This document shows, piece after piece, positions 5,114 through 6,541 of a DNA stretch of 64,000 nt. The notes beneath the pieces were generated by a model that was not told the origin of the DNA, searched no databases, and saw only the letters and a program-made list of their open reading frames with translations. The stretch lies in the NCBI RefSeq assembly GCF_024298765.1, contig NZ_CP101210.1; one strand, 5' to 3'. This stretch comes from Escherichia coli. GTDB lineage: Bacteria; Pseudomonadota; Gammaproteobacteria; Enterobacterales; Enterobacteriaceae. Position 1 is the first letter of the stretch; each line of letters starts with the position of its first letter. The translations under genes and the position numbers were made by a program.

Positions 5114-6541
5114 ATGAGCGATAAAAAGAAGCGCAGTATGGCGGGTTTGCCGTGGATCGCGGCGATGGCCTTCTTCATGCAGGCACTTGATGCCACTATT
5201 CTGAATACCGCCTTACCCGCAATCGCTCATAGCCTTAATCGTTCTCCTCTCGCGATGCAATCAGCCATCATCAGTTATACGCTGACGGTGGCGATGCTTA
5301 TTCCGGTAAGCGGATGGCTAGCCGATCGCTTCGGTACGCGTCGCATATTTACTCTTGCCGTGAGTCTGTTCACGTTGGGTTCTCTGGCCTGCGCACTTTC
5401 TAACTCGCTACCACAGCTGGTTGTCTTCCGGGTTATTCAGGGGATAGGCGGCGCAATGATGATGCCTGTTGCTCGGCTGGCCTTACTGCGCGCTTATCCT
5501 CGTAATGAGCTTCTTCCTGTATTGAATTTTGTCGCCATGCCGGGTCTGGTGGGGCCAATTTTAGGCCCCGTTCTTGGCGGCGTGCTGGTCACCTGGGCAA
5601 CCTGGCACTGGATATTTTTAATCAATATCCCCATAGGTATTGCGGGCCTTCTTTACGCGCGCAAACATATGCCCAATTTCACCACCGCACGACGCAGATT
5701 CGATATCACTGGCTTTTTGCTGTTTGGCCTTAGCCTTGTTCTCTTCTCAAGCGGAATAGAGCTATTCGGGGAAAAGATTGTCGCCAGTTGGATTGCCTTG
5801 ACGGTAATTGTCACCAGCATCGGGTTACTGCTTCTCTATATTCTCCATGCACGACGCACGCCAAACCCATTAATTTCATTAGATTTATTTAAAACCCGCA
5901 CTTTCTCGATCGGTATCGTAGGCAATATTGCAACCCGTCTGGGGACCGGTTGTGTACCGTTCCTTATGCCATTGATGTTACAGGTAGGATTTGGTTATCA
6001 GGCTTTTATTGCCGGCTGTATGATGGCACCGACAGCGTTAGGTTCCATTATTGCAAAATCGATGGTTACCCAAGTCTTACGTCGTCTGGGCTATCGCCAT
6101 ACGTTAGTTGGGATCACGGTGATTATTGGGCTAATGATCGCTCAGTTCTATTTGCAATCACCGGCAATGGCGATATGGATGCTGATCTTGCCGTTGTTTA
6201 TATTAGGGATGGCTATGTCGACGCAATTTACCGCGATGAATACCATCACACTTGCCGATCTGACCGATGACAACGCCAGCAGCGGTAACAGTGTTCTGGC
6301 GGTCACGCAGCAACTGTCTATCAGTTTAGGCGTTGCTGTAAGTGCGGCCGTCCTTCGCGTTTATGAAGGGATGGAAGGCACAACGACAGTCGAACAATTC
6401 CACTATACGTTTATCACGATGGGCATTATTACTGTTGCTTCAGCAGCAATGTTCATGCTTCTGAAAACAACTGATGGTAATAATTTGATCAAAAGACAGC
6501 GTAAATCTAAGCCGAACCGCGTTCCATCAGAATCGGAGTAA
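5114..6541 (+). CDS. hsrA: MFS transporter HsrA (YieO)
   Basis: 475 aa highly hydrophobic ORF with MFS motif [11 protein letters not shown], consistent with a 14-TM drug/H+ antiporter-type protein. Confidence 0.88.

Follow-up and report, generated by a model that had tools for sequence, protein, structure and literature searches.

Convergent 35-nt coding overlap of hsrA and rbsR in Escherichia coli, a conserved tail-to-tail gene pair that probably arose via stop displacement

Where two convergent genes run into each other's coding sequence, it has to be asked whether the shared DNA is a device by which one transcription unit controls the other, or simply the trace of a stop codon that has moved. 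The question is raised by hsrA, encoding a transporter, and rbsR, encoding the ribose operon repressor, whose 3' ends overlap in the 64,000-nt stretch of E. coli DNA analysed here (contig NZ_CP101210.1, hereafter the window). I put the probability at roughly 85% that this overlap is a genuine and conserved tail-to-tail pair that came about via stop displacement, and is not a dedicated regulatory device. The features needed to follow the argument are listed here by window coordinates and strand, with the evidence behind each in brackets.

4399..5091, + strand: yieP, FadR/GntR-family regulator, first gene of its operon (ORF, annotation, PMC11340327)
5114..6541, + strand: hsrA (yieO), DHA2-type MFS transporter, 475 aa (ORF, profiles, RefSeq)
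6507..6541, both strands: dual-coding overlap, 35 nt (direct sequence, codon bookkeeping, per-site diversity)
6509..6538, + strand: lineage-specific HsrA C-terminal extension, residues 466-475 (profile end, short-form orthologues)
6507..7499, - strand: rbsR, LacI-family ribose operon repressor, 330 aa (ORF, equivalog, annotation)
6542..6803, + strand: putative yieP-hsrA 3' untranslated read-through, antisense to rbsR (published Rho region)
7503..8432, - strand: rbsK (ribokinase), directly upstream of rbsR (annotation of the window-identical locus and K-12)

Geometry of the overlap and identity of the two genes

The ORF listing places the hsrA stop codon, TAA, at 6539-6541 and the rbsR stop codon, TAG, at 6507-6509, where the + strand reads CTA. 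Read directly from the sequence, the segment shared by the 3' ends of the two genes on opposite strands spans 6507-6541 and is exactly 35 nt long; the 35-nt convergent coding overlap of hsrA (+) and rbsR (-) that had been proposed in the first-pass annotation is thus borne out by the ORF coordinates and by the sequence itself. On the + strand, the overlap encodes the tail of HsrA together with its stop codon TAA (the gene ends ...AAA TCT AAG CCG AAC CGC GTT CCA TCA GAA TCG GAG TAA), and on the - strand it covers RbsR residues 320-330, the stop codon TAG and two bases of the codon for Leu319 (the gene ends ...CTT ACT CCG ATT CTG ATG GAA CGC GGT TCG GCT TAG). The frames are offset such that codon position 1 of hsrA faces position 1 of rbsR, 2 faces 3, and 3 faces 2; therefore no site in the overlap is synonymous in both genes.

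Both hsrA and rbsR are genuine protein-coding genes and not chance ORFs. RbsR matched the NCBIfam RbsR equivalog NF007743 along its whole length (residues 1-330 of 330) with 697 bits against a cut-off of 531, while HsrA scored 458 bits against the MdtD-subfamily model NF007799 (cut-off 426), 266 bits against TIGR00711 and 164 bits against Pfam MFS_1. Chance expectation is the wrong test here, since the overlap follows directly from two reading frames that are themselves well supported. At the end of RbsR, both the family profile and Pfam Peripla_BP_3 reach the last residues, and the part of the protein encoded in the overlap is within its conserved C-terminal domain. The NCBIfam profile match on HsrA stops at residue 465, and residues 466-475, which are coded in the overlap, therefore lie outside the family model. 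With regard to operon context, hsrA is the second gene of the yieP-hsrA operon (PMC11340327), and transcription of this operon runs into the hsrA/rbsR overlap; rbsR is the last gene of rbsDACBKR, and its mRNA is supplied by transcription through rbsK.

The annotation of both genes has peculiarities. PGAP labels hsrA as 'mdtD: multidrug transporter subunit MdtD', as the protein passes NF007799, and this name is misleading: K-12 hsrA (b3754) is a separate locus from the gene in the mdtABCD operon. The annotated start of rbsR is a TTG at 7499, 3 nt past the rbsK stop, and an in-frame ATG lies three codons downstream at 7490 (- strand, window 7490-7499: …AGAGGTGA CGC TTG GCT ACA ATG…).

The hsrA-rbsR overlap is real, conserved and already known, both from the K-12 annotation and from a published excludon catalogue. 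In the RefSeq record of K-12 MG1655, rbsR (3938227..3939219, +) and hsrA (3939185..3940612, -) share an identical 35-nt overlap, and the two genes overlap likewise in the RefSeq annotation of a strain that is 100% identical to the window over a 651-nt junction query (6200-6850). The junction sequence is present in 5,414 of the 5,426 complete E. coli genomes, and 3,636 records match a 91-nt junction segment with at least 99% identity. The expectation of the first-pass annotation that K-12 would have the same arrangement therefore holds for MG1655, and its view of the overlap as conserved and not novel agrees with K-12 together with the ~5,400 E. coli genomes. One published count for an E. coli reference genome gives 75 convergent pairs among 663 overlapping gene pairs.

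Junction forms across Enterobacteriaceae and the likely origin of the overlap

A scan with one genome per species yielded 80 Enterobacteriaceae loci, and each junction was classed by walking both frames to their first stop. rbsR was convergent with and directly downstream of hsrA in all 80 species, and a spacer of more than 3 nt between them was found in none of the 80. The genes overlapped to some extent in 70/80 species, the commonest states being 35 nt (34 species) and 4 nt (24 species):

Gap of 2-3 nt: 10 species (Kluyvera, Phytobacter, Atlantibacter)
Overlap of 4 nt: 24 species (stops interlock as TTAA/CTAA/TTAG)
Overlap of 9 nt: 6 species (Kosakonia)
Overlap of 24 nt: 1 species (Kosakonia oryzendophytica)
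Overlap of 35 nt: 34 species (Escherichia, Salmonella, Citrobacter, Enterobacter, Leclercia, Intestinirhabdus)
Overlap of 53 nt: 5 species (Lelliottia, Huaxiibacter)

One of the records in the scan, CACSKA010000004.1 ('Chryseobacterium sp. 18061'), has a yieP-hsrA-rbsR locus of Enterobacteriaceae type that hardly differs from the one in 'Citrobacter sp. 18056'; mislabelling or contamination of the record is likely.

Short-form junctions read ...CAC AAA GCT TAA GCC..., in which TTA is the reverse complement of the rbsR stop TAA, and long-form junctions read ...AAG GCT AAA CCG... or ...AAA TCT AAG CCG.... The trinucleotide CTA (rbsR stop TAG) was found in 34/34 species with the 35-nt form, and the 4-nt species mostly had TTA (TAA). 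The two forms differ in length by 31 nt, that is, by ten codons plus 1 nt, and the HsrA extension comprising residues 466-475 is missing in short-form species, whose orthologues end with ...KERHK(K)A directly before the stop. The five loci with a 53-nt overlap showed a further change of the rbsR-stop CTA to CGA or CAA, which is synonymous for an hsrA Pro codon; the rbsR stop is lost, and RbsR is 6 residues longer (SAGGDL or similar).

These forms can be arranged into a possible course of events. hsrA and rbsR would have adjoined without a spacer since before the sampled Enterobacteriaceae genera diverged, and a 4-nt overlap with interlocked stops (TTAA) is probably the ancestral state. The deletion of one T (GCTTAAG to GCTAAG), presumably on the branch or branches that led to Escherichia/Salmonella/Citrobacter and to Enterobacter/Leclercia/Lelliottia, would have shifted hsrA past its stop. 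HsrA would thereby have gained 10 codons, antisense to the last 11 rbsR codons, up to a TAA that faces Leu-Thr (CTT-ACT). The same missing T would have turned the rbsR stop TAA into TAG and left the RbsR protein unchanged. In keeping with a stop-displacement origin, the junction forms differ by a 1-nt deletion and the profile ends at HsrA residue 465, and stop displacement is the accepted route to convergent overlaps.

The origin by a single-nucleotide deletion is thus a reading of the aligned junctions, and the direction of change would follow from an NJ tree of the linked proteins, which was built with the overlap excluded and was midpoint-rooted. Short forms sat at the deepest branches of this tree, and the long forms did not make up one clade but two groups: a short-form group (Kluyvera, Trabulsiella, Pluralibacter and relatives) was placed between them on a very short internal branch. 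A single origin of the 35-nt form was consequently not adopted, as the tree fits one origin followed by a reversal and two independent deletions equally.

Coding constraint in the shared segment

Across the 34 species that have the 35-nt form, per-site diversity inside the overlap was 0.247 at rbsR third positions, 0.113 at second positions and 0.071 at first positions. Diversity peaks at rbsR third positions, and rbsR therefore dominates the constraint; the variable residues of the HsrA tail are largely a by-product of synonymous rbsR changes.

A reciprocal effect on rbsR was found when its codon diversity was computed from a protein-guided codon alignment in 11-codon windows (317 windows). 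In the 39 long-form species, the final 11 codons of rbsR had a third-position diversity of 0.251 versus a gene mean of 0.435, the lowest value along the gene (rank 1/317, which is not a formal p-value given 11 codons, overlapping windows and phylogenetically related species). The same codons were unremarkable in the 41 short-form species (0.488 versus 0.464, rank 186/317). The Leu codon that faces the hsrA stop was CTT or CTC in 39/39 long-form species, these being the sole Leu choices that keep the hsrA stop, and was CTG in 17 of the 41 short-form species. This pattern points, tentatively, to purifying selection acting on the stop codon of hsrA and on some tail positions (K-P-x-x-x-P-S-E-x-E).

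One reading goes further, namely that the 10-residue HsrA tail is a functional, selected product of overprinting, and/or that selection retains the spacer-free junction as an excludon that ties the dosage of RbsR to YieP-HsrA expression. I regard this as unlikely, and it is kept open because synonymous constraint on rbsR is seen in the long form only and because a spacer is lacking in 80 species.

Transcript ends and the weighing of rival readings

The first-pass annotation had also claimed that the two genes leave no room for a terminator between them. This stands: there is no intergenic DNA, and no element resembling an intrinsic terminator was detected near the junction on either strand. 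A consensus terminator scan returned no site near 6400-6750, and single-sequence folds of ~210 nt downstream of each stop were no better than those of shuffled sequences (z = -0.99 and -0.72). RNAalifold, applied to both strands in 17 species, predicted no hairpin followed by a U-tract, and covariation contributed next to nothing (-1.63 and -0.79 kcal/mol). An embedded intrinsic or bidirectional terminator was rejected, as the consensus scan, the comparison of folds with shuffles and RNAalifold yielded no convincing candidate on either strand. With no spacer and no intrinsic terminator found, each transcription unit must end inside the other gene, and the mRNAs are therefore complementary over at least 35 nt. 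Each gene has its stop at the distal end of the overlap, such that a full-length hsrA or rbsR mRNA cannot end before the overlap.

An E-value search of 3500-9500 against Rfam found no family at the junction; it returned 16S rRNA and a sub-threshold match to Ysr197 (window 4040-4291, -; 83.9 bits versus a gathering score of 167). The latter sits between the 16S rRNA gene (3500-3918, -) and yieP, and is probably an rrn leader/promoter region.

Published bicyclomycin data place a site of Rho action on the hsrA strand well inside rbsR. In Supplementary file 2 of Adams et al. 2021 (PMC7815308), a region of Rho termination is given at K-12 3938923 (-); it is classed as 'antisense rbsR' and has, from DirectRNA-seq with and without bicyclomycin, a Rho score of 2.78 (p = 7.6e-6). 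Upstream/downstream reads at this position were 102/32 in untreated cells and 164/143 with bicyclomycin, which are low counts from one dataset (PMC7815308). In the colinear K-12 alignment, 3938923 is 262 nt past the hsrA stop and corresponds to about window position 6803. Upstream of it, at +105..+234 after the hsrA stop, the C/G ratio is 1.3-1.6, close to the 90th percentile of 78-nt windows in the 64-kb window (1.53); this is a moderate value rather than an extreme one, and it is correspondingly moderate as a sign of a rut site. According to these published data, hsrA-strand termination is Rho-dependent and occurs ~260 nt downstream, inside antisense rbsR, and the overlap of mRNAs on the hsrA side is probably a few hundred nt.

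On the rbs strand, the strongest 3' end is at the RbsZ terminator after rbsB, where the Term-seq peak is 84,576 versus 865 for a 3' end internal to rbsR (PMC7815308). The RbsZ sRNA, which stems from the 3' UTR of rbsB, is located together with its terminator at about window 8448-8681 (-; K-12 3937045-3937278), between rbsB and rbsK, and Rfam gave no match in this region. Most rbs transcription may never reach rbsR. Within rbsR, a Term-seq 3' end is located 98 nt into the gene (K-12 3938325, about window 7401, -) and a Rho region with a score of 3.77 is located 160 nt into the gene (K-12 3938387, about window 7339, -; PMC7815308), and together these could mean that transcription of the repressor gene ends prematurely inside it. 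Downstream of the rbsR stop, the list in PMC7815308 contains neither a 3' end nor a Rho region, and there are no curated Term-seq 3' ends near the junction for either transcript. Full-length rbsR transcripts would end within hsrA, given the absence of a spacer and of an intrinsic terminator.

Antisense interference between hsrA and rbsR, which had been suggested as a consequence of convergent transcription, is plausible, and fits both the bicyclomycin-sensitive region ~262 nt inside antisense rbsR and the listing of rbsR-hsrA among 165 convergent excludons of MG1655 found in at least 50% of 58 transcriptomes (ExcludonFinder, based on RNA-seq coverage). A stronger version would make the pair a regulatory excludon: the spacer-free arrangement itself would be selected, and expression of one operon would lower that of the other by transcriptional interference or RNase III duplex cleavage, thereby linking the level of the ribose repressor to YieP/HsrA expression. 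Apart from the published listing, this is favoured by the 80/80 species without a spacer and by transcription of the hsrA strand, which reaches ~260 nt into antisense rbsR before it is stopped by Rho. Overlapping coding sequences will always pass a coverage-based test, however, and the listing consequently carries little information in this case; the length of the overlap is also far from fixed, varying from -3 to 53 nt, hsrA-strand read counts are low, and a large share of rbs transcription seems to end before the junction, at the RbsZ terminator and in the 5' part of rbsR. A literature search found no functional link between ribose regulation and HsrA, and no reciprocal-expression or RNase III data for hsrA-rbsR. 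Selection of this kind is therefore improbable as an account of the junction, even though the absence of a spacer in 80 species is left unexplained by stop displacement and could itself reflect selection for transcript overlap.

It is also rather doubtful that head-on collisions of RNAPs, and not Rho, set the 3' ends at the junction by bidirectional termination. SEnd-seq work proposes that such collisions end many E. coli convergent pairs that have neither an intrinsic terminator nor Rho, and the hsrA-rbsR junction likewise lacks an intrinsic terminator in the searches above. The mechanism is described, however, as needing a pause element that encodes a hairpin, and no conserved hairpin was found here; it is more efficient in highly expressed pairs, while hsrA-rbsR expression is low; and the bicyclomycin sensitivity of hsrA-strand read-through implies Rho. 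The least credible of the alternatives is that the overlap is an artefact of annotation or sequencing, with a wrongly called stop, an error in sequencing or a pseudogene behind it. The title of PMC2478687 does point to long overlaps as sometimes being mispredictions, but stop codons are unambiguous, unlike starts, the same stops recur in K-12 and in thousands of independent assemblies, and the 35-nt form is kept in 34 species of several genera. Conservation in K-12, across assemblies and across species effectively refutes the artefact. A genuine tail-to-tail pair formed via stop displacement, at a junction that had no spacer from the outset, remains the preferred reading, with Rho removing read-through on one strand at least.

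Convergent overlapping pairs that arise from stop loss or displacement likewise consist of two bona fide genes on opposite strands with shared 3' ends and a short overlap, and hsrA-rbsR is not different in kind, being one of ~75 in an E. coli reference genome. Its particulars are the likely 1-nt deletion in interlocked stops that would alter both at once, and a second step to 53 nt in Lelliottia and Huaxiibacter. Convergent excludons as defined by ExcludonFinder are alike in that the hsrA and rbsR transcripts necessarily overlap and the pair belongs to the MG1655 excludome, but the hsrA-rbsR overlap includes coding sequence and not UTRs alone, and mutually exclusive expression, through interference or RNase III processing, which is the outcome that defines excludons, would for this pair be a prediction. 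Rho-dependent antisense termination within a convergent gene is matched by the bicyclomycin-sensitive region in rbsR, ~262 nt past the hsrA stop, by the untranslated RNA that follows this stop and by a moderately C-rich stretch upstream of the site; in contrast, the hsrA case is represented by a single genome-wide dataset and by a termination region rather than a precise 3' end or rut site.

The general importance of the locus is small, as the overlap is part of the standard annotation and convergent overlaps from stop displacement are a textbook class. The small additions made here are a reconstruction of how the 35-nt form may have originated and a hint of selection on the HsrA tail. As a worked example, the locus is of modest value: one base lost in interlocked stops would alter the stops of both genes, and the synonymous sites of one gene would then be constrained by its neighbour. 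For practical purposes, engineering of either 3' end (a C-terminal tag, or deletion of rbsR or hsrA) alters the partner gene, and any mutation or insertion in 6507-6541 affects both genes.

Such an insertion is found in E. coli 1162C (NZ_CP051659.1; locus L083:3053-4303), where an IS3-like element, ISEc52, lies within the overlap at about window 6532-6541. RefSeq annotates hsrA ('mdtD') and rbsR of this strain both as partial with missing C-termini, and since the element is inside the shared segment, one insertion disrupts both genes. A different change was seen in E. coli JNE181771 (NZ_AP027156.1): the junction query matches in its hsrA part alone, with 39% coverage, and the genes annotated there are mdtD and rbsK, pointing to a deletion of rbsR in this strain.
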